From NCBI GenBank assembly GCA_031396695.1, contig JANNLG010000171.1:6053-70052 (forward strand): a stretch of 64,000 nucleotides of DNA. Direction: 5' to 3'. Both the position numbers and the translations under genes were made by a program. How positions within the stretch are numbered: the first letter of the stretch is position 1; each line of letters begins with the position of its first letter. The notes beneath the pieces were generated by a model. That model was not told where the DNA came from. It searched no databases and saw only the letters and a program-made list of their open reading frames with translations. This DNA is from Deltaproteobacteria bacterium. Its GTDB lineage: Bacteria > Myxococcota_A > UBA9160 > SZUA-336. Shown in pieces: positions 3,475 through 52,070 of this stretch.

Positions 3475-4425
3475 ATGGCCAAACCCTTCCGCTTCGCGGT
3501 GCAGGTCTCGACGCTCCCCGCCGACGGCTGGATCGAGCGCGTGCGCTCGTACGAGCGACTCGGCTTCTCCACGGTCTTCTGCCCCGATCACTTCGGGCCG
3601 CAGTGGGATCCGACTGCGCTGCTCGCGGCGGCCGCCGCGGTCACGACACGACTCAATGTCGGGTCGCTGGTGTACGACGTCGACTACCGCCACCCCGTGA
3701 TCCACGCCAAGGGCGCCGCGACGATCCAGCTGCTCTCCGGCGGGCGGCACGAGTTCGGCATCGGCGCGGGTTGGATGCAGACCGACTACGACGAGGCGGG
3801 CATGCCTTACGACCGCCCAGGCCTGCGCATCGAGCGGCTCGACGAGGCGCTGCAGATCATCAAGAGCATGTGGGAGAACGAACGCACCACGTTCTCGGGC
3901 AAGCACTACAAGATCACCAACATCGCGAAGGCCGCCGAGCTGCCGGCCGGCGCGCGGCCCAAGATCCTGATCGGCGGTGGAGGACCGCGCGTGTTGCGGC
4001 TCGCGGGCCGGCACGCCGACATCGTCGGCATCAATCCGAGCCTGCCCGAGGGCAAGATCACGCGAGACAGTGCCGCCGATCTCGCGCCCGAGCGGCTCGA
4101 CGAGAAGCTGCGCCACGTGCGCGCGGGCGCGGAGGCCGCGGGCCGACGTTTCGACGAGATCGAGCTGAACTCGCTGACCTTCGTGGTGGCGATCACGGAT
4201 GATGCCTCGGGCCTGCGCGCGGGCCTGGCCGCGAACAGCGGAATGTCGGTCGAGCAGGTCGCGAACTGCCCGATCTTCCTGACCGGCTCCGCGGCGGAGA
4301 TCCGCGACGGGCTCGAGAAGCGGCGCGAGCGCTACGGGCTCTCGTACATCGTGATCCAGGGCCGCGATCCGGCCATGGTCGAGAAGTTCGCCGAGCTGAT
4401 CGTGGCGCCGCTGTCCGGCAAGTGA
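3475..4425 (+). CDS. LLM-class (luciferase-like) probable F420-dependent oxidoreductase
   Basis: ATG 3475 (MAKPFRFAVQVS...). Luciferase-like monooxygenase family pattern (FSTVFCPDHF, GGRHEFGIGAGW, PKILIGGGGPRVLRLAGRHADIVG). The upstream part of track ORF 3292.. overlaps ndh. Confidence 0.75.
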   Translation: MAKPFRFAVQVSTLPADGWIERVRSYERLGFSTVFCPDHFGPQWDPTALLAAAAAVTTRLNVGSLVYDVDYRHPVIHAKGAATIQLLSGGRHEFGIGAGWMQTDYDEAGMPYDRPGLRIERLDEALQIIKSMWENERTTFSGKHYKITNIAKAAELPAGARPKILIGGGGPRVLRLAGRHADIVGINPSLPEGKITRDSAADLAPERLDEKLRHVRAGAEAAGRRFDEIELNSLTFVVAITDDASGLRAGLAANSGMSVEQVANCPIFLTGSAAEIRDGLEKRRERYGLSYIVIQGRDPAMVEKFAELIVAPLSGK

Positions 4426-4503
4426 CGCGCGCGAACGAGCGAGCGCATGCGCTAGCAACTTTGCCTCAAGCGGGTGCGCGACACCTCCGATAACTTCGTG
4501 GAC

Positions 4504-7500
4504 ATGAGCGCCACGCTGGGGACGGACCCGCCGCTCTGGGAGCGCTACACCCGAACGCACGGCCGCGTGCACCTGACGGGTCTGCAAGCGCTGCTGCGCA
4601 TGACGCTCGACCAGCTGCGCAGCGACGCGCGCGCAGGGCTGCGCACCGGCGCGTTCTTCTCCGGCTATCCGGGTTCTCCGCTCGCGGGGCTGGACGGAAT
4701 GCTGCGCAGCCTGGCGCCGCTGCTCGCGCGCTCGGACGTGCGGCTCGCGCCGGGTCTGAACGAAGAGCTCGCGGCCAGCGCGGTGGCGGGCACGCAGCTC
4801 GTCGAGACCTTCCCGCACGCCCGCTACAACGGCGTGCTCGGGGTCTGGTTCGGCAAGGCGCCCGGTCTCGATCGCGCGATCGACGCGCTGCGCCACGCCA
4901 ATTTCGTGGGCACCGGACGGCAGGGCGGTGCGCTGGCGGTCGTGGGCGACGATCCGTTCTGCAAGAGCTCGTCGCTGCCGAGCCACAGCGAGCACGCCTT
5001 CGCGCACGCCTACATTCCGTTGTTCGCGCCGGCCGACCCGGGCGACGTGCTGCGCCTCGGACGGCTGGCGTTCGCGCTCTCGCGCTACACCGGATTGTGG
5101 AGCGGACTGCGCATGGTGGCCGACGTGGCCGACTCGGGCCGGATCGTCACGCTCGCCGACGCTGAGCCCGCGCTCGTGCTGCCGGAGTTCGTGAATCCGG
5201 CCGGCCGGCCGGCTCGGCGCATCGACACGAATCTGCTGCCGCCGAACGTGCTGCGCATCGAGCAGGATCTGGTCTTCGGCAGACTCGAAGCCGTGCACCG
5301 CTTCGCGCGCGCGAACGGCTTGAATCCGATCACGTCGAAGCACGCGCGCGATCGCGTGGGCCTCGTCGCTTCGGGCTCGCTCTACCGCGAGCTCGAGAGC
5401 GCGCTCGCGCTGCTCGGCCTCGACGAGCCCGAGCGCGAGCGACTCGGCGTGCGGCTGCTCAAGCTCGACCTGGTCTGGCCGCTCGAGACCGAGCGCATGC
5501 GCGAGTTCGCATCCGGACTCGAGGCGATCGTGGTGGTGGACTCGCGCCGTGCCTGGCTCGAGGAGCAGGTGCGCGCGGCGTTGTACGAGGGCGGGTCGCG
5601 CGCGCGCGTGCTCGGCCAGCACGACGAGCGCGGCGCGGCCTGGCTCGCGCGCCGCCACGAGCTCACCGGCGGTACGCTCGCGCAGGATCTCGCGCCCTGG
5701 CTGGGCGAGAAGCTCGGCGAGCCGAAGCTGGTTTCTCGCCTCGCGCCGCTCGAAGCCGCGCTCGCGCGCGCGTCCCACGCGGCCGAACCGTCGCGCGCGC
5801 CGCACTTCTGCAGCGGCTGTCCGCACTCGTCGTCGACCAAGCTGCCCGAGGGCTCGCTCGCCGGCGGCGGCATCGGCTGTCACACCATGGCGCTGCTCAT
5901 GCCCGAGCGCGCAGTGCGGCTGCTCGGCGCGATGGGTTCGGAGGGTGCGCACTGGATCGGTCTCGCGCCCTACACCGAGACGCGACACCTGTTCCAGAAC
6001 CTGGGCGACGGCACCTACTTCCACTCCGGCCGGCTGGCGGTTCGCGCCTGCGTCGAGGCCGGTGCGACGATCACCTTCAAGCTGCTCTGGAACGGAGTCG
6101 TCGCGATGACCGGCGGCCAGCACGCCGTGGGCGCCAAGCCGCTCGCGGCGCTGGTGCGGGATCTGCTGGCCGACGGGGTGCTCTGCGTGGTGGCGATGAG
6201 CGACGACCGCGAGGTCGCCGCGCTCGAAACCTACGAGCCGCGTCTTCGGGTGGTGGACCGGAACGGCTGGGACGGCGCCATGCGCGAGCTGCGCGAGCAG
6301 AGTGGCGTCAGCGTCATGATCTGGGACGAGCTGTGCGCGAACGAGAAGCAGCGGCTCGAACGCCGCGGCGTGCTCGCTCGGCCGAGCGCGCGCGTGGTGA
6401 TCAACGAAGACGTGTGCGAGGGCTGCGGCGACTGCGGCGTCAAGTCTTCGTGCGTGTCGCTGCGGCCGGTCGAGACCGCGCTCGGCCGCAAGACGCGCGT
6501 GCACGCGGGCTCGTGCAGCGACGATCGCGCCTGCCTCGACGGGGACTGCCCGGCGTTCCTCTCGGTCGAGGGTGCGACGGCCGCAGCGCTGCCCTTCGAG
6601 TCCCTGCTGACGGGGCCGCTGCCCGAGCCGCCCGCGCCGATCTGGGACGGCGATCGCTACGAGCTGCAGCTGGTCGGCATCGGCAGCACGGGCGTGGTCA
6701 CGATCGACGCGCTGCTGGTGCGCGCCGCCGAGCACGACGGCTTGTACGCGATGCACCTCGACCAGACCGGCCTCGCGCAGCGCGGCGGCAAGGTCGTGTC
6801 GCACTGCGTGCTCGCGCGCACCGAACTGACGGGCAGCCCGCGCATCGAGCCGGGCCGCGCGGACGTGCTGCTCGCCTTCGATCCGCTCGGCTCCTCGGAT
6901 CGCGACGCACTGCGCGCGCTCGACCCGGGCCGCACGCGCGCGGTGGTGCACGAGCTGTACGTGCCGACCGGCGCCGACGTGGGCGCGCCCGGCTTCCAGC
7001 CGCCCGACCTCTCCTTGCTGATCGAGCCGCTGCGCGAAGCCACGCGCTCGCTCGAGCGCGTTCCCGCGGAGCTGCTCGCGGAAGTCGCGCTCGGCCAGTC
7101 GCTGTCGGCGAATCTGGTGCTGCTCGGCTTCGCCTGGCAGCGCGGACTCGTGCCGGTCTCGCGACTCGCGCTCGAACGCGCGGTGCGAGAGAACGGTGTC
7201 GCGGTCGAGGCCAACCTGCGCGCGATCGCGCTCGGCCGCGCGGCCGCGGTCGACGCGGAGCTGGTCGCGAAGCTCTTGCACGACGCGACTCCGCCGGCGA
7301 TCGGCGACGAGCCGGCGCTCGATCGCGCCGCGCGCGCGCTCGGTCCGGCCTGGAGCGCGGTGCACGAAGCGCTCGGCCGCTTCCAGCACGCGAAGGACTC
7401 CGATCGCGTCACTTCGCTGATCGCATCGTTCGCGGCCGATCTGGTCGACTACCAGGGCAAGCGGCTGGCGTCGCGCTACTGCGCGCGCGTCGCGCGCGTG

Positions 7501-8045: not shown

Positions 8046-8264
8046 GTGTCGGAGTGGCTGCGAATCGCCCGCGAGCCGTCGGTCGTGCGACGTGCGTTTC
8101 GAACCATGCTCGTGGTCGGCGCGATCCTGATCGCCATCAATCACGGCGACGCGTTGCTCTCGGGTCAGCTCGACGCCGACCGCGTGTTCAAGATCTGCCT
8201 GACGTTGCTCGTCCCGTACGGCGTCTCGACCACCTCGAGCGTCGCCGCGCTGCGCTCGAGGTAA
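8046..8264 (+). CDS. nitrate/nitrite transporter NrtS-family small membrane protein
   Basis: GTG 8046, in frame with the tail of track ORF 6333..8264. The 72-aa product VSEWLRIAREPSVVRRAFRTMLVVGAILIAINHGDALLSGQ...LLVPYGVSTTSS matches the NrtS family pattern (INxGD, LVPY). Confidence 0.7.
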   Translation: MSEWLRIAREPSVVRRAFRTMLVVGAILIAINHGDALLSGQLDADRVFKICLTLLVPYGVSTTSSVAALRSR

Positions 8265-8272
8265 CGGGGCCC

Positions 8273-8294
8273 GGCGCGCGGACGGCCGCGCGCC
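8273..8294. terminator. GC-rich hairpin between convergent genes (possible bidirectional terminator)
   Basis: GGCGCGCGG-ACGG-CCGCGCGCC forms a perfect 9-bp stem. It lies between the nrtS-like stop (8264) and the stop of the minus-strand gene (8340). No U-tract is present. Confidence 0.4.
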
Positions 8295-8339
8295 ACCCGC
8301 ACTTCGCTCAGCTTCGCTTCGCTGCGCGCTTCGCTTGCG

Positions 8340-8933
8340 CTACCCGCCCGCGAGAAGTTCATCGCAGTCGTCGACGCGCAGACTCGTGGCCAGCAGCAGG
8401 CGCGTTGCGTCGGCGCGCATCGCGAACAGCGACGTGGCGTCGGCGCCGCTGACGGTGGACTCGGCGGATTCGACCCCGAGCGCTTGACCCGCGATCGTGA
8501 TGCAGAGCCACTTCTCGCGCGCTTCGAGGCGCCGATCGTAGCGGTCGATCAGCCCGCGCAGCTCGCCGTACACGATGCGATTCGCAGCGATCAGCGCGAA
8601 CGGCGCAGACAGATTCGCGATCTGGAGCTCGGACACGGAGCCGTACACGCTCTGATCGGGGTGCGCGCGCAGGTACTCCCGCGTCGAAGCGAAGCCGACC
8701 GCCGAGAGCGTCGCATTCACCGGCTCGTCGCCGAAGTCCTGGCTCTCGATCTTCGCGACCAGGTACGTGCCCTCGACCGGACCGTCGAGCGAGTAGCGCA
8801 CCACGTGCTCGTTCGTCTCGACCACGAGCTCGCCGCCTTCGAACACCGGGGCGAGTGGATTCGTGCGCAGATATCGCACCGCGAAGTGCCCCGCCACCAT
8901 CAGCGCGACGACCAGCAACGCCGTTTTCCACAT
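8340..8933 (-). CDS. hypothetical membrane-anchored protein
   Basis: ATG 8933 (MWKTALLVVALMVAGHFAVRYL...) provides an N-terminal TM anchor. The body has balanced, non-shadow composition. No family recognised. Confidence 0.6.
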   Translation of the reverse strand: MWKTALLVVALMVAGHFAVRYLRTNPLAPVFEGGELVVETNEHVVRYSLDGPVEGTYLVAKIESQDFGDEPVNATLSAVGFASTREYLRAHPDQSVYGSVSELQIANLSAPFALIAANRIVYGELRGLIDRYDRRLEAREKWLCITIAGQALGVESAESTVSGADATSLFAMRADATRLLLATSLRVDDCDELLAGG

Positions 8934-9018
8934 TTCTACGTATCGGCGCGCCGGGGCTCGAGCAAGAGGCGAGAAGCCGCAGTTGCACACGCGTGACGGT
9001 CCACTCAATATCGCGCAC

Positions 9019-9786
9019 GTGTTGCTTCTCTCCTGGAACGTGAATGGGCTGCGCGCCGCCGGCCGCGGCGGTTTTCTGGACTGGTTCGCAGGCCAGCGCC
9101 CGTTCGCGGTGTGCGTGCAGGAGATCAAGGCTCGGCCCGAGCAGCTCTCGGACGAGCTGCGCAACCCGCACGGCTACCACGCCTACTACCACTCGGCCGA
9201 GACGCCTGGCTACAGCGGTGTGGCCACCTTCACGCGTGAAGAGCCGCTCGCGGTGGTGCACGGCATCGGCTCGAAAGAGTTCGACCGCGAGGGCCGCGTG
9301 CTGCGCACCGAGTTTCGCGACTTCGTGCTGGTGAACGCGTATTTCCCGAACAGCCAGCGCGACCATGCGCGGCTCGACTACAAGCTGCGCTTCTGCTCGG
9401 CGATGCTGCGGCTGATGAACGGCTATCGGCGCTCCGGCAAGCACGTGCTCTTGTGCGGCGACTACAACATCTCGCACGCCGAGATCGATCTGGCGAACCC
9501 GCGCGAGAACCGCCTGAACGCGGGCTTCCTGCCGGAGGAGCGCGCCTGGATGGATCGCTTCCTGGCACGCCACGGCTGGATCGACACTTTTCGGAGTCGC
9601 TGCCCCGAGCCGGGGCACTACACCTGGTGGAGCAACCGGCCCGGCGTGCGCGAGCGGAACATCGGTTGGCGGCTGGACTACTTCGTCGCGAACCTCGAGC
9701 TGATGGACCGCGTCGCGCGCATCGAGCACCAGACCCAGGTGCGCGGCTCCGACCACTGTCCTGTGGCGCTGAAGGTGCGGGACTAG
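9019..9786 (+). CDS. xthA: exodeoxyribonuclease III
   Basis: GTG 9019 (VLLLSWNVNGLRAA...). The segments CVQEIKA, VNAYFPN, LCGDYNISH and the C-terminal SDHCPV are the hallmark EEP/ExoIII motifs. Product is 255 aa. Confidence 0.9.
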   Translation: MLLLSWNVNGLRAAGRGGFLDWFAGQRPFAVCVQEIKARPEQLSDELRNPHGYHAYYHSAETPGYSGVATFTREEPLAVVHGIGSKEFDREGRVLRTEFRDFVLVNAYFPNSQRDHARLDYKLRFCSAMLRLMNGYRRSGKHVLLCGDYNISHAEIDLANPRENRLNAGFLPEERAWMDRFLARHGWIDTFRSRCPEPGHYTWWSNRPGVRERNIGWRLDYFVANLELMDRVARIEHQTQVRGSDHCPVALKVRD

Positions 9787-10616
9787 ATGTCGTAGGTCGG
9801 GTCGATCGAGCCCGACTCCGAATCCTTGTGCTTGACCTGGAGCTGCGGCGGCGTGATCTGCACGCGCGAGAAGGCCGGCACCGATTCGTGTAGCCAGACG
9901 TTGCCGCCGATCACCGAGCCCTCGCCGATCACGGTGTCGCCACCGAGGATGGTCGCGTTCGGGTAGATCGTGACGTCGTCCTCGATCGTCGGGTGGCGCT
10001 TCTTGCCGGAATCCAGCCTGCCCTGCTTGTTCGAGAACGCTCCGAGCGTGACGCCGTGGTACATCTTGACGCGGTTGCCGATCACCGCGGTCTCGCCGAT
10101 CACCACGCCCGTGCCGTGATCGATGAAGAAGTGGCAGCCGATCGACGCGCCGGGATGGATGTCCATGCCGGTCTTGCTCTTGGCGTGCTCGCTCATGATG
10201 CGCGCCGCGACCGGCGCGCCGAGTTCGTAGAGTACGTGCGCGATGCGGTAGGTCGAGACGGCGTACGCCGACGGATACGCGGCGATCACCTCCGCGTACG
10301 ACTTCGCCGCGGGATCTCCCTTGAAGGCGGCCTCGACGTCCATGCCCACGCAGTGCCGGATGTCCGGCAGATGCTCCAGGAACTTCGATGCGAGATCGGA
10401 GCCGATCAGCCCCGAGAGCAGGCCGTGCACGACTTCTAGATCGGAGTTGAGCCGCTCGTGCGGGGTCTGCTCCAGCACGATCGCGCGCAGATTCTCGAGC
10501 ACGTCGACCACCCGCCGGGTATCGGGGCAGGCCTGACGACGCGCAACGCTCACGGGATCGTTCTGATCGCGCTTGGCGATCAGATGATTCGCGATGGATT
10601 CGGTCAAGGTGGACAT
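9783..10616 (-). CDS. cysE: serine O-acetyltransferase
   Basis: ATG 10616 with GGGAG upstream. Has the SATase N-terminal region followed by hexapeptide repeats (DIHPGASIGCHFFIDHGTGVVIGETAVIG, VTLG, HPTIEDDVTIYPNATILGG). Confidence 0.9.
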   Translation of the reverse strand: MSTLTESIANHLIAKRDQNDPVSVARRQACPDTRRVVDVLENLRAIVLEQTPHERLNSDLEVVHGLLSGLIGSDLASKFLEHLPDIRHCVGMDVEAAFKGDPAAKSYAEVIAAYPSAYAVSTYRIAHVLYELGAPVAARIMSEHAKSKTGMDIHPGASIGCHFFIDHGTGVVIGETAVIGNRVKMYHGVTLGAFSNKQGRLDSGKKRHPTIEDDVTIYPNATILGGDTVIGEGSVIGGNVWLHESVPAFSRVQITPPQLQVKHKDSESGSIDPTYDI

Positions 10617-48709: not shown

Positions 48710-49813
48710 TCAGGCCGCCGCGGGCGTCTCCGGTAGCGGACCGACGTAGCGCGAGCCGGGCCGGATGATGCGCGAGCTCTGGCGCTGCTCGTCGATGTGC
48801 GCGAGCCAGCCCGCCACGCGCGCGACCGCGAAGGTCGGCGAGAACAGCTCCTGCGGCAGACCGATCGCGTCGAGCAGCACGGCCGTGTAGAACTCGACGT
48901 TCGCGGCCATGCGGCGCTCGGGGCGGCGCTCGCCGAGCGACGCGACGGCGACGCGCTCGACCGCGCGCGCGAGATCGAGCCGATCGCTGCGCAGGCCCGT
49001 CTCGCGCAGGCGCTCGACGGCGCGCTCGAGCACTGCCGCCCGCGGATCGCGCACGCGGTACACGCGGTGGCCCATGCCCATGATGCGCCGGCCCGAAGCC
49101 AGCTCGCCGGTGATCCAGCTCGAGGCGTTCTCGGGCGTGCCGATCGCGTCGAGCATCGCGAGCACCGGCCCGGGCGCGCCGCCGTGGCGCGGCCCCTTCA
49201 GCGCGCCGAGTGCAGCCACCACGGCCGACACCGTGTCGGAGTCGGTCGAAGCGACCACGCGCGCGGTGAACGTGGATGCGTTCATGCCGTGATCGGCGGC
49301 GGTGACCAGGTACGCGTCGAGCGCGCGGCTGCGCGCCGGATCGCTGCCGTGCGCGCTCGCCATGCGCAGGTAGTCGGCGGCGTGACCGAGCGCGGGATCG
49401 GGTGCGATCGGCGCCGAGCCGCGCTGTTTGCGCGCCCACGCCGCCGCGAAGACCGCGACCGAAGCCGTGAGCTCGGCACGCAGCTCGCACTCCGGAATCT
49501 CGCTCGCGCGCAGCTGCGCGAGCGCCCCGCGCACGGCCTCCATGCCGTCGGGCGCATCGAGCGCGCGGCCGAGCGAGCGCAGGCGCGCGAACGCGCGAAC
49601 GCGTGCTCGGCCCAACTCCTCACGCACGTCCTCGTGCGCAATCGGACCGGGCAGCTCGCCGCTCCAGAGCAGCGCGCAGGCCGCCTCGAAATCGGCTCGC
49701 TGCGCGAGCTGCTCCACGTCGTGCCCGCGCACCACCAGGCGGCCGCGCTCGCCGTCGACGTCGGAAAGGCAGGTCTCCGCCACCACCACGCCCTCGAGTC
49801 CATCCATCTGCAT
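48710..49813 (-). CDS. citrate synthase family protein (small type)
   Basis: ATG 49813 (MQMDGLEGVVVAETCLSDVDG...). The segments DHGMNASTF, LKGPRHGGA, GMGHRVYRVRDPR and NVEFYTAV match the family. The rest of track ORF 48710..51052 is an antisense shadow. Confidence 0.85.
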   Translation of the reverse strand: MQMDGLEGVVVAETCLSDVDGERGRLVVRGHDVEQLAQRADFEAACALLWSGELPGPIAHEDVREELGRARVRAFARLRSLGRALDAPDGMEAVRGALAQLRASEIPECELRAELTASVAVFAAAWARKQRGSAPIAPDPALGHAADYLRMASAHGSDPARSRALDAYLVTAADHGMNASTFTARVVASTDSDTVSAVVAALGALKGPRHGGAPGPVLAMLDAIGTPENASSWITGELASGRRIMGMGHRVYRVRDPRAAVLERAVERLRETGLRSDRLDLARAVERVAVASLGERRPERRMAANVEFYTAVLLDAIGLPQELFSPTFAVARVAGWLAHIDEQRQSSRIIRPGSRYVGPLPETPAAA

Positions 49814-49865
49814 CGCACTTCTCCTTGGACCTCTACCTTGCCGCTGATCCATTACTTGATCAACG

Positions 49866-49881
49866 TTGATCGATCGATCAA
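49866..49881. promoter_or_regulatory. perfect 16-bp palindrome TTGATCGATCGATCAA (candidate operator)
   Basis: It lies in the 78-bp gap between the divergent citrate-synthase paralogues. It is preceded by the related 8-bp palindrome TTGATCAA (49856..49863). It lies 10 nt upstream of the GTG of the HTH-fused paralogue. Confidence 0.45.
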
Positions 49882-49891
49882 GATACGAGCC

Positions 49892-51133
49892 GTGAAGACG
49901 CGAACCGACGCAGCGCTCTGCGCGCGCGAGGCGGCCGAATTCCTGGGCGTGAAGCTCGCGACGCTCTACGCCTACGCGAGCCGCGGCCGCTTGAAGAGTG
50001 TGTCCGGGACGCGCGGCCGCGCGCGGCGCTACGCGCGCGCCGATCTCGAGGCACTGCGCGCGCGCAGCGCCGGACCCGCCGCGGGCGCGCTGCGCTTCGG
50101 CGAGCCGGTGCTCGAGACGCGCATCACCGACATGACTCCGCTCGGGCCGGTCTACCGCGACCGGCTCGCGAGCGAGCTCGCGAGCGCACGCGCTCCCTTC
50201 CCGTCGGTCGCGGAGCTGCTTTGGACCGGCGCCCTGCCCGCGCGCGCGCCGAGCTGGCCCGCCGGCGCGACGATCTGGCCGGCGCGCGAGCTCGCGAAGC
50301 TCGTGCCGCGCGGCAGCCCACCGCTCGGCGCGCTCGCGATCGCGCTGCCGGTGCTCGCGGCGAACGATGCCTCGCGCTTCGACGCGCGACCCGAGGCCGT
50401 GCTCGCGCGCGCGCGCGGCTTGCTGCCGCAGCTCGCGGCCTCGTACGCGCTCGCGCTCGATCCACGCCGGCTCGCACCCGCGCTCGAGGCCGGCGACCCG
50501 GCGCGCGCGCTCGCGATCGCGCTCGGCGCGCCGACCACGAAGCCCGCGCTCGAGCTCCTGAACGTCGCACTCGTGCTGCTCGCCGATCACGAGCTGAACT
50601 CGTCCACGTTCGCGGCGCGCGTGGCGGCCTCGACCGGCGCCGACCTGTACGCGTGTCTCGGCGCCGCGGTCGCCGCGCTCAGCGGACCGCTGCACGGCGG
50701 CGCGAGCGAGCAGGTCGAGATCCTCGCTCGCGAAGCTGCGAACGCCGCCGGCGCGGCCAGCGCCGTGCGCGATCGCATGCGCCGCGGCGAGCGCATTCCC
50801 GGATTCGGTCACTCGCTCTATCCGGATGGCGATCCGCGCGTGCCGCCGCTGCTCGAGGCCGCAAGACGGCTTGCCCCACGCGCGCCGCGCGTGAAGACGA
50901 TCGCGGCGATCCTCCACGCGATGGACGAGGCCGGCCGGCCCAAGCCCAACGTCGACGTGGCGCTCGCCTGCGCCTGCGCTGCGCTCGATCTGCCCCAAGG
51001 CCAGGGCCCGGCGATCTTCGCGATCGGCCGCGCGGCGGGCTGGGTTGCCCACATCCTGGAGCAGTACGAGGCCGGCTTCGTGCTGCGACCGCGCGCCCGT
51101 TGGGCGGGCCCCGCTGGTATGCTGCGCGCGTGA
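49892..51133 (+). CDS. citrate synthase family protein with N-terminal helix-turn-helix (excisionase/MerR-type) domain
   Basis: GTG 49892. LCAREAAEFLGVKLATLYAYASRGRLKS is an HTH_17-like motif. The citrate synthase core follows (DHELNSSTF, LSGPLHGGA, GFGHSLYPDGDPR, PNVDVAL). Confidence 0.8.
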   Translation: MKTRTDAALCAREAAEFLGVKLATLYAYASRGRLKSVSGTRGRARRYARADLEALRARSAGPAAGALRFGEPVLETRITDMTPLGPVYRDRLASELASARAPFPSVAELLWTGALPARAPSWPAGATIWPARELAKLVPRGSPPLGALAIALPVLAANDASRFDARPEAVLARARGLLPQLAASYALALDPRRLAPALEAGDPARALAIALGAPTTKPALELLNVALVLLADHELNSSTFAARVAASTGADLYACLGAAVAALSGPLHGGASEQVEILAREAANAAGAASAVRDRMRRGERIPGFGHSLYPDGDPRVPPLLEAARRLAPRAPRVKTIAAILHAMDEAGRPKPNVDVALACACAALDLPQGQGPAIFAIGRAAGWVAHILEQYEAGFVLRPRARWAGPAGMLRA

Positions 51134-51245
51134 GCGGCAAGCCCGAGGTCGATGAGCGGATCGGTCCGTCAGTGGTTCGAATGCGGTGCGGCGAGCTCGG
51201 ATCGAAAACCCGCGGCCTTTTGCCGTGACTACCCCGGAGGCGTGA

Positions 51246-52070
51246 ATGTACGAGCAGATCCTCTACTCGGTCGAAGACCCCGTCGCGCTGATCACGCTGA
51301 ATCGGCCGGAGCGACTGAACGCCTGGACCGATCGCATGGGCGACGAGCTGCGCCACGCGATCGCGCGCGCGGAGGCCGACAAGAGCGTGGTCGGCATCGT
51401 GCTCACCGGGGCGGGCCGCGGCTTCTGCGCGGGTGCGGACCTGAAGGGACTGCAGGCGATCACCGTTGGCGAGCGCGAGCGCGGCGGCACCGCTTCGGGA
51501 CTCGCCGCCGACCCCGGCGACACCGAAATGGGTGAGTCGTTCCGCAAGCACTACTCGTACCTGATGTCGGTGCGCAAACCGATCATTGCCGCGATCAACG
51601 GACCGTGCGCCGGCATGGCGATGCCGATCGCGCTGTTCTGCGATCTGCGCTTCGCGGCCGAGAGCGCGACCTTCACGACCGCCTTCGTGCGCCGCGGCCT
51701 GATCGCGGAGTGGGGCCTGGCCTGGACGCTGCCGCGGCTGGTCGGCTCCGCGCACGCGCTCGACCTGTTGCTCTCGGGCCGCAAGATCGATGCGCGCGAA
51801 GCCGAGCGGATCGGGCTCGTGAATCGCGTGCTCTCCGACGAAAAGCTGGTCGCCCACTGCGTCGACTACGTGCGCGAGCTGGCGGCGAACGCCTCGCCGG
51901 CCTCGATGATGGTGATGAAGCGGCAGGTCTACCAGCAGCTCACGAGTGAACTCGGCCCGGCGTGCGACGAGGCCGTGAAGCTGATGGTGGAAAGCTTCTC
52001 GCGACCCGACTTCAAGGAGGGCGTGCAGTCCTTCCTGGAACGGCGACCGCCGAAGTTCCCGCGCGTCTAG
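51246..52070 (+). CDS. enoyl-CoA hydratase/isomerase family protein
   Basis: Full-length track ORF with GGAGG upstream. The segments ALITLNRPERLNAW, GAGRGFCAGADL and IAAINGPCAGMA match the family. Confidence 0.9.
   Translation: MYEQILYSVEDPVALITLNRPERLNAWTDRMGDELRHAIARAEADKSVVGIVLTGAGRGFCAGADLKGLQAITVGERERGGTASGLAADPGDTEMGESFRKHYSYLMSVRKPIIAAINGPCAGMAMPIALFCDLRFAAESATFTTAFVRRGLIAEWGLAWTLPRLVGSAHALDLLLSGRKIDAREAERIGLVNRVLSDEKLVAHCVDYVRELAANASPASMMVMKRQVYQQLTSELGPACDEAVKLMVESFSRPDFKEGVQSFLERRPPKFPRV

Follow-up and report, generated by a model that had tools for sequence, protein, structure and literature searches.

The MocR/GabR regulators combine an N-terminal winged helix-turn-helix (HTH), a flexible linker, and a dimeric aminotransferase-fold domain that binds the effector, and they typically regulate their own gene as well as a divergent metabolic one. 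PutA and BirA are trigger enzymes whose activity has been proven. Closer to citrate metabolism, citA of Bacillus subtilis has a divergent regulator of the LysR type, CitR, and PrpR of Salmonella is of the sigma-54 type. The MocR/GabR regulators and trigger enzymes such as PutA would be the closest functional analogues of the system described here, which lies in a stretch of 64,000 nucleotides (the window, taken at its full length) from contig JANNLG010000171.1 of a Deltaproteobacteria bacterium. In this window, two citrate-synthase-family genes diverge from a gap of 78 nucleotides, and the product of one of them begins with an HTH domain. We consider it likely that this fusion protein is a one-component regulator that works as a dimer, senses through an enzyme-derived domain, and controls itself and the adjacent synthase gene. 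An earlier note, made from the letters of this DNA, had already proposed that the fusion protein derives from an enzyme, binds DNA, and has an operator of its own, and such a role for the putative regulator is supported by the conservation of the fusion, of its HTH, of the predicted operator, and of the divergent pairing with a synthase gene.

The fusion protein and its helix-turn-helix domain

The minus-strand gene (positions 48710 to 49813) encodes a CitA-type citrate synthase of 367 amino acids, and the plus-strand gene (49892 to 51133, GTG start) encodes the fusion protein of 413 amino acids, the proposed regulator. The divergent intergenic region (49814 to 49891), which carries the predicted operator, has a guanine-plus-cytosine (GC) content of 50% inside a window of 71% GC. 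The coordinates and motifs that the earlier note gave for this pair were correct on a check of the sequence: GPRHGGA, GMGHRVYRVRDPR, and NVEFY are all present in the minus-strand protein, and AAEFLGVKLATLYAYASRGRLKS, GFGHSLYPDGDPR, and PNVDVAL in the plus-strand protein. The N-terminal HTH of the plus-strand copy is found by Pfam as an HTH_17 domain covering residues 12 to 57 (49925 to 50062, plus strand; E value of 1.1e-9, 38.8 bits versus a cutoff of 27). It is followed by a citrate-synthase-fold domain at residues 70 to 401 (50099 to 51094, plus strand; Pfam Citrate_synt, E value of 2.7e-68), for which we propose a role in dimerization and ligand sensing.

The fusion belongs to a large family. 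Two homologue searches returned thousands of proteins, and nearly all of the best 120 matches in each search combine HTH_17 (PF12728) with Citrate_synt (PF00285); in the databases they are named "citrate synthase family protein" or "helix-turn-helix domain-containing protein." A genome scan gave 588 confirmed fusion loci, 80 of which were fetched for comparison (some site counts below use 81 loci). The loci are found in Myxococcota, Burkholderiales, Xanthomonadales, Alphaproteobacteria, Chloroflexota, Acidobacteriota, Gemmatimonadota, Actinomycetota, Latescibacterota, and others. Two family signatures, TLYAY(A/V)SRG and GFGHxLYPxGDPR, are invariant or nearly so in the alignment and in the 80 loci and are present in the window protein. 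No HTH joined to a citrate-synthase fold was found among solved structures, and our literature searches found no paper describing a family of HTH-citrate-synthase fusions. The domain architecture is already catalogued in databases, while the operator, the regulon associations, and the pattern of selection are, as far as could be determined, undescribed. In one metagenome-assembled genome of the Burkholderiales (locus L047, positions 4001 to 5851), the fusion open reading frame is 616 amino acids long and has an extra C-terminal MarR domain (HTH_17 plus Citrate_synt plus MarR). The gene may be a true triple fusion, or a frameshift or assembly artefact may have joined it to a downstream MarR gene.

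A wrongly chosen start codon could have created the N-terminal extension. This objection, which the earlier note had raised against its own reading, fails because of two observations made with L081, a relative of 79% identity: it has an ATG at the same codon as the GTG start in the window, and the substitutions in codons 1 to 62 are those of a translated sequence. The differences in these codons fall mostly on the third position (12, 4, and 24 at the first, second, and third codon positions), and 19 of the differing codons are synonymous versus 12 that are nonsynonymous. The next in-frame methionine is residue 82, and a start at this position would remove the beginning of the citrate-synthase fold. 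In the 80 fusions, the HTH residues T24, Y26, Y28, S30, R31, and Y47 are each retained in 77 to 79 proteins. The HTH is thus translated and under purifying selection, since its divergence is dominated by third-position and synonymous changes and its residues are conserved.

In an AlphaFold2 model (mean predicted local distance difference test score of 83.8, above 90 over most of residues 80 to 400), residues 9 to 58 are predicted to form a winged HTH consisting of a strand, helices at residues 11 to 18 and 22 to 30, a wing, and a helix at residues 49 to 58. A disordered linker (residues 62 to 74) then leads to a confidently predicted citrate-synthase fold. The antiparallel coiled-coil dimerization helix of MerR-type proteins is absent after the winged HTH in this model, which places the disordered linker there instead. 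The Pfam families MerR_1 (21.5 bits versus a cutoff of 21.6) and MerR (20.9 versus 28.2) both stay below threshold. When the isolated HTH was compared with the sequences in the PDB, weak but consistent matches were obtained with TipA and SoxR (E value of about 0.1), with the phage excisionase-like protein Gp37, and with 6ama/6amk, which we take to be BldC (the database label is only "Putative DNA-binding protein"). An excisionase would be a small, stand-alone HTH_17 protein beside an integrase or mobile element, whereas here the domain is fused to an enzyme fold of 350 residues. By its HTH the fusion is a member of the MerR/excisionase superfamily, yet it lacks defining features of MerR regulators and of excisionases alike.

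The predicted operator

The intergenic region contains TTGATCAA (49856 to 49863), then CG, then the perfect 16-bp palindrome TTGATCGATCGATCAA (49866 to 49881), as the earlier note had placed them. The palindrome, TTGATC-GATC-GATCAA, is the core of the predicted operator; it ends 10 nucleotides before the GTG of the fusion gene and lies 52 nucleotides from the start of the divergent CitA-type gene. TTGATCAA includes an auxiliary half-site, ATCAA(y), at 49859 to 49863, 2 nucleotides before the core, and is also -35-like (TTGATC). A perfect 16-bp palindrome is by itself unremarkable in this DNA, as the window has 10 of them and 9.6 are expected from first-order Markov simulations; it is the conservation in related loci that gives the site its significance. 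TTGATCGATCGATCAA is the only perfect 16-bp palindrome in the window with a GC content of 50% or less (0.2 expected), and nowhere else in the 64 kb is TTGAT-N6-ATCAA matched at 9/10 positions or better. An alignment of the window with L081 shows that the operator block has hardly changed, while the rest of the gap has diverged and contains indels.

The tetranucleotide GATC occurs 726 times in the window (11.3 per kb) versus about 170 times expected from the composition of 71% GC. GATC is thus roughly fourfold overrepresented in the window, which makes the presence of four GATCs in the operator less striking than it seems. We considered a Dam/SeqA-type signal and rejected it, as orthologous sites of the form TTGATT...AATCAA contain no GATC. 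The GATC repeats are incidental, a local filling of the N4 spacer.

Within about 300 nucleotides upstream of the fusion, TTGAT-N6-ATCAA is perfect in 37 of the 80 loci and matches at 9/10 positions in 9 more. The background rate, 17 matches in 602 kb, would give about 0.75 by chance. If a spacing of N7 is allowed as well, the element stands just upstream of the fusion in 58/81 loci; the N7 form is found in all nine Xanthomonadales loci, in the Parvibaculaceae locus L075, and, as a 9/10 site, in L032. In four further loci (L036, L048, L052, and L079) an extra gene lies between the CitA-type gene and the fusion, and a perfect site is found in the divergent intergenic region at the head of the operon formed by this gene and the fusion. 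Counting these, the element is found at the head of the transcription unit of the fusion in 62/81 loci. The consensus is (A)TCAAy-N-TTGATy-N4-rATCAA, with the core TTGATy-N4-rATCAA corresponding to TTGAT-N6-ATCAA, and its instance in the window spans 49859 to 49881. A position profile made from 47 N6 sites and 11 N7 sites reads T.aTCAAt.TTGATT..a.AATCAA, in which two bases (the y and one that is not conserved) come between the auxiliary ATCAAy half-site and a 6-N4-6 dyad. The most frequent upstream flanks are TTGATCAATC, TTGATCAACG, and GTTGTCAATC. The site usually ends 0 to 30 nucleotides before the start codon of the fusion and lies 35 to 120 nucleotides from the start of the divergent gene.

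The element co-occurs with the fusion in at least 8 phyla that differ widely in GC content and in the neighboring genes. In L049 and L067, the motif stays beside the fusion, with the CitA-type gene at a distance of about 1 kb, and in L047 the motif is present next to a divergent gene for TctC. The element thus follows the fusion gene, whatever the divergent neighbor is. The earlier note had proposed to check whether orthologues of the fusion are always preceded by a TTGATC-type palindrome: a TTGATy element is present in most loci but not in all of them, and the GATC part is not conserved.

Several lineages show variations of this arrangement. Nannocystis exedens DSM 71 (L053) has two copies of the operator (TTGATTCGACAATCCA), about 124 and 48 nucleotides upstream of the fusion start and 76 nucleotides apart, and L054 and L040 also have a second site nearby. 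In five Sorangium loci (L003, L004, L006, L007, and L010), the operator lies 160 to 270 nucleotides upstream of the projected start of the fusion and exactly 70 nucleotides from the CitA-type gene. The same five loci share a second conserved block, ACGTTGATGGGC.CTCATGGTTGATCTACCTG, near the start of the fusion, so that an alternative start codon or an extra element is possible. Eight Myxococcaceae loci (L005, L009, L012, L015, L018, L019, L020, and L023) carry the variant site TCGATTCGACCATCMA, which overlaps the predicted N-terminal coding region, and in these loci the divergent gene encodes an S-adenosylmethionine-dependent methyltransferase and not a synthase. In the Myxococcaceae, the HTH sequence TLYTYVSRG and the wing change R45N occur alongside half-sites of the form TCGAT...ATCMA. 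These changes may reflect covariation of protein and DNA within a single evolutionary event. As evidence for recognition of the site by the HTH we discounted this covariation, because one case at the level of a lineage offers too few independent events.

Catalytic and ligand-binding residues

The minus-strand protein was regarded as a bona fide synthase in the earlier note, and this is probably correct. It contains only a Citrate_synt domain (E value of 1.9e-106), it exceeds the cutoff of the NCBIfam model NF009005 (392.9 bits versus 332), and its nearest solved relatives are CitA of B. subtilis (2c6x; E value of 9.6e-79), with which it shares NVEFY, and CitA of Mycobacterium tuberculosis. The active-site residues are invariant in 52/52 paired orthologues: these CitA-type partners have both histidines, a glutamate at the position of the aspartate (as in 2c6x), and the binding arginine. 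The gene is probably the regulated target, and its product is probably an active enzyme.

The citrate-synthase domain of the fusion gives a different picture. All 21 NCBIfam enzyme models stay below their cutoffs, and the best one, TIGR01800, reaches 190.4 bits versus a cutoff of 421.3. The nearest folds in Foldseek are dimeric citrate and 2-methylcitrate synthases (1a59, 3hwk, 3tqg, and 6s87), with TM scores of 0.73 to 0.80 relative to the target. The ligand-binding residues are the most conserved ones, with D314, R316, R399, and R401 present in 80/80 fusions, R380 in 79/80, and H233 in 78/80. The catalytic residues follow with H268 in 75/80, H307 in 73/80, and D355 in 72/80. The full His/His/Asp triad is found in 67/80 fusions; it is incomplete in the other 13, which still keep the HTH. 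One such group is a subclade of the Burkholderiales without a synthase neighbor, which has valine, isoleucine, or leucine at position 268 and glutamate at 355 and in which the HTH is kept. The window fusion itself has H268, H307, D355, H233, N236, R316, R380, and R401.

In canonical citrate synthases, basic residues at the first and fourth positions after the second catalytic histidine (His+1 and His+4) contact the phosphates of coenzyme A (CoA). Almost all partner enzymes have them (arginine at His+1 in 50/52, arginine or lysine at His+4 in 49/52), whereas in the fusions these basic residues are replaced, with a proline at His+4 in 66/80. It is therefore doubtful, as far as can be predicted from these residues, whether the fusions bind CoA. 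The claim that the catalytic-region motifs of the fusion are altered thus holds for the basic pair, which is changed throughout the family, and not for His268, His307, and Asp355, which are all present in the window protein. Such an asymmetry between partners and fusions is to be expected of a partner that does the enzymatic work and of a fusion whose domain has been kept mainly for ligand binding and dimerization.

Genomic context

Across phyla, the fusion has a CitA-type synthase gene as its immediate divergent neighbor in about 50 of the 80 loci. In the nine Xanthomonadales loci (L055, L058, L063, L068, L069, L070, L072, L076, and L080), the divergent genes are prpB and prpC, with the N7 operator between them and the fusion; the two products score above the cutoffs for methylisocitrate lyase (521 bits versus 353) and 2-methylcitrate synthase (723 versus 550). 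What is conserved as a module is thus the fusion together with the operator and a divergent operon of the (methyl)citrate synthase type. Other neighbors of the fusion are the tricarboxylate-binding protein TctC together with a thiamine pyrophosphate enzyme, malate synthase, a family III CoA-transferase, and a Rieske oxygenase, and further ones are a threonine/serine-dehydratase-like gene, enoyl-CoA hydratases, and acyl-CoA ligases. These neighbors may tie the module loosely to the metabolism of short-chain acyl-CoA and propionyl-CoA.

In the window, the neighboring genes are metabolic (asd, acetoacetate-CoA ligase, citrate synthase, enoyl-CoA hydratase, and exosortase). The enoyl-CoA hydratase gene (51246 to 52070, plus strand; Pfam and NCBIfam) lies downstream of the fusion, outside the conserved module. 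In L081, the closest relative with a long contig, a gene for a methylmalonyl/propionyl-CoA-type carboxyltransferase of 518 amino acids (L081 positions 8239 to 9795, starting with VSWKPEVDE) overlaps the stop codon of the fusion and is followed by the enoyl-CoA hydratase and exosortase genes in the same operon. The flanking sequences of the two genomes can be aligned, but about 1.55 kb of L081 between them are missing from the window. Positions 51130 to 51157 (plus strand) are a deletion remnant of the carboxyltransferase gene, namely, its first nine or so codons (VSGKPEVDE) with a GTG that overlaps the stop codon of the fusion, and the loss of this gene has left a gap of 113 nucleotides before the enoyl-CoA hydratase gene.

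It had also been proposed that the fusion controls these downstream genes. As a conserved feature of the family this was rejected, because in 77 of 80 other loci the fusion has no enoyl-CoA hydratase gene beside it; the acetoacetate-CoA ligase, hydratase, and exosortase genes of the window are likewise not conserved next to the fusion elsewhere. Local cotranscription of the fusion and the hydratase gene is plausible, as no terminator-like site was found between 49600 and 51400 and the genes form an operon in L081.

Discussion

We propose that the citrate-synthase-fold domain of the fusion would form the usual citrate synthase dimer and that its ligand would be a di- or tricarboxylate. The ligand is probably one of oxaloacetate, citrate, and 2-methylcitrate, and an acyl-CoA may bind alongside it. 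Such a dimer would offer two N-terminal winged HTHs on flexible linkers to TTGATC-N4-GATCAA, and the adjacent ATCAA half-site may be contacted too, perhaps by a further subunit or dimer. Occupancy of the operator would autoregulate the fusion gene, with repression being the most likely outcome, because the site abuts the start codon of the fusion and overlaps the promoter-start region; in the window, this overlap of operator and promoter is assumed from the distances only. The divergent synthase gene would also be controlled by occupancy of the operator, with either sign. Ligand-driven closure of the domains is well known for citrate synthases, and the movement from the open to the closed form could shift the geometry of the HTHs and hence the affinity for DNA. 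The computation shows the domain architecture, that the HTH is translated, that operator and synteny are conserved, and which residues have been retained; from this we infer DNA binding, the geometry of the dimer, the identity of the ligand, the sign of regulation, and this allosteric route.

Several points weigh against this proposal. A factor other than the fusion protein might recognize the conserved motif. No sigma-70-like promoter was detected in the gap of the window, and about 11 of the 81 loci (e.g., L016, L043, L044, and L074) have no recognizable motif. The recurrent neighbors (prpBC, a threonine-dehydratase-like gene, carboxyltransferase, hydratase, and acyl-CoA ligases) hint at propionyl-CoA metabolism only loosely. 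Finally, none of the three catalytic residues or of the binding residues is missing from the window protein, which may be an active enzyme.

The last point leads to the alternative that the fusion is a trigger enzyme, that is, a DNA-binding protein with full activity as a citrate or 2-methylcitrate synthase, whose turnover or substrate flux sets its affinity for DNA. This reading overlaps with the one we prefer and differs only in whether catalysis matters. It would explain why the window fusion has His268, His307, and Asp355 along with all oxaloacetate- and citrate-binding residues, why 67 of 80 members retain the full triad, and why 2-methylcitrate synthases are the closest folds. It fits less well with the 13 members that dispense with catalytic residues and keep the HTH, with the family-wide replacement of the basic His+1 and His+4 residues that the partners conserve, with the failure of every NCBIfam enzyme model to reach its cutoff, and with the dedicated synthase gene that adjoins the fusion in most loci. 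If CitC of Caulobacter (see below) belongs to the family, its failure to complement E. coli gltA, in contrast to CitB, would be a further point against catalysis. We give this alternative a modest chance, the largest among the rivals. In a different mode of action, the protein would be a MerR-style activator, with the dyad inside an overlong -35/-10 spacer of 19 to 20 bp and the ligand-bound protein untwisting the promoter, as MerR, SoxR, and TipA do. The subthreshold matches to the MerR and MerR_1 families, the position of TipA and SoxR as the best PDB sequence matches of the HTH, and the presence in several AT-richer genomes (L033, L049, L050, and L057) of TTGTCA and TATATT or TATAAT flanking the dyad with a spacer of 19 bp are in line with this. 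Both hexamers with at least 4/6 matches are present, however, at only 9 of 83 sites (with a spacer of 19 in 5) and at 5 of 20 sites in genomes below 62% GC, and no such promoter is detectable in the window. Moreover, the predicted structure has a disordered linker and no coiled-coil dimerization helix after the winged HTH, and in many loci the start codon comes 0 to 3 nucleotides after the dyad, so that a -10 element and a leader would not fit in between. We therefore regard a MerR-style mechanism as unlikely.

Two citrate-synthase-fold paralogues are kept next to each other in various phyla, in about 50 of the 80 loci. This could also mean that the fusion forms heteromers with the adjacent CitA-type synthase, so that the amount or state of the enzyme, and not a free metabolite, controls DNA binding. 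Citrate synthases are obligate dimers, which makes such a partner switch conceivable. The fusion and the operator persist, however, without an adjacent CitA-type gene in Xanthomonadales, Burkholderiales, Myxococcaceae, and Ktedonobacter, and the paralogues share only about 33 to 38% identity; this explanation seems to us more improbable still. Least probable, and in our opinion very unlikely, is that the palindrome serves as a promoter element or is bound by an unrelated global regulator, the HTH having another role, or that the N-terminal extension is an artefact. The FNR-type consensus is TTGAT-N4-ATCAA, and the TTGAT and ATCAA half-sites resemble it; the upstream half-site is -35-like, and perfect 16-bp palindromes occur in the window at the frequency expected by chance. 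The spacing of N6 or N7 and not N4, on which we rejected an FNR-type box, the fact that the motif tracks the fusion across at least 8 phyla, and the presence of a single such site in 64 kb all speak against another factor. The annotation-artefact variant is largely refuted by the conservation of the HTH at the protein level, by the synonymous-dominated divergence, by the start position shared with L081, and by the loss of the beginning of the citrate-synthase fold that a start at Met82 would bring.

In its widest form, the reading of the fusion as a regulator would make it one member of a pan-bacterial family of transcription factors. In such a family, an intact citrate-synthase fold would sense oxaloacetate or methylcitrate/acyl-CoA, and its closure would reposition two MerR-like winged HTHs on a tripartite operator, thereby setting the expression of alternative (methyl)citrate synthases and short-chain acyl-CoA pathways. 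We put this forward tentatively, as a generalization that is more likely to fail in some part than to hold throughout. If it is true, at least 8 phyla read the flux into the tricarboxylic acid cycle at the DNA by means of a duplicated copy of the entry enzyme. Proteins called a second or third citrate synthase would then be regulators, possibly including CitC of Caulobacter. Already on the reading that we prefer, thousands of bacterial genes whose annotation is simply "citrate synthase" or "citrate synthase family protein" would encode transcription factors, and metabolic reconstructions would overcount citrate synthases. The family also provides a ready hypothesis for the regulation of minor CitA-type synthases and of prpBC in Stenotrophomonas, Luteimonas, and Pseudoxanthomonas, and the pair of operator and sensor could become a biosensor for oxaloacetate, citrate, or methylcitrate-type metabolites.

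Comparison with known systems

The architecture of the fusion resembles that of the MocR/GabR regulators in having, on the predicted structure, a winged HTH, a linker, and a large enzyme-fold module for dimerization and effector binding. It differs from them in that the HTH is HTH_17/MerR-like and not of the GntR type, the fold is that of citrate synthase and not pyridoxal phosphate fold type I, and no cofactor is expected. With MerR, SoxR, and TipA the fusion shares the winged HTH superfamily, the R-x-Y motif in the wing, and a predicted dyad in its own divergent promoter region. Unlike the MerR family, it lacks the antiparallel coiled coil, the Pfam MerR match is below threshold, and the 19- to 20-bp geometry is found at a minority of sites. 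The BldC/excisionase proteins share the Pfam HTH_17 domain with it, as well as the weak similarity to 6ama/6amk and to the phage protein Gp37, and an operator with more than two half-sites recalls the multimeric binding of BldC-type proteins. Those proteins are small, stand alone, and are often found beside integrases, whereas here the HTH is fused to an enzyme fold of about 350 residues in a metabolic neighborhood.

The layout of the locus is like that of the CitR and PrpR systems, as the regulator is divergent from a minor citrate synthase gene or from prpBC and a palindrome lies in the shared intergenic region. The fusion is unrelated in protein and in site to CitR, which is LysR-type, and to PrpR of Xanthomonas citri. 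The latter binds GTTGCAA-N2-TTGCAAC, can be aligned to PrpR of Salmonella, and represses prpB (PMC12153269). We considered whether X. citri PrpR could be a characterized member of the fusion family and rejected this on the basis of that site and of the alignment to the sigma-54-type protein (PMC12153269). The gene arrangement in the Xanthomonadales loci suggests that in Stenotrophomonas, Luteimonas, and Pseudoxanthomonas the fusion is a regulator of propionate catabolism distinct from X. citri PrpR.

A pair of adjacent citrate synthase paralogues is also found in Caulobacter crescentus, where CitB (CCNA_03757) complements E. coli gltA and CitC (CCNA_03758) does not (PMC7083601). The N termini derived from the supplementary primers of that study are MMSDGLEGV for CitB, which is like MQMDGLEGV of the CitA-type protein here, and MTDWMDAEQVL for CitC, which fits the pattern that precedes the HTH (PMC7083601). 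From this short sequence, CitC may be a member of the fusion family, and the CitB/CitC pair may represent the module described here. The Caulobacter genes are adjacent as in the window, but they are apparently arranged in tandem and not divergently. Like PutA and BirA, the fusion combines an enzyme fold and, in this case predicted, DNA binding in one polypeptide that would regulate the genes of its own pathway. Unlike in these trigger enzymes, catalysis looks dispensable in part of the family, judging by the residues that have been lost.

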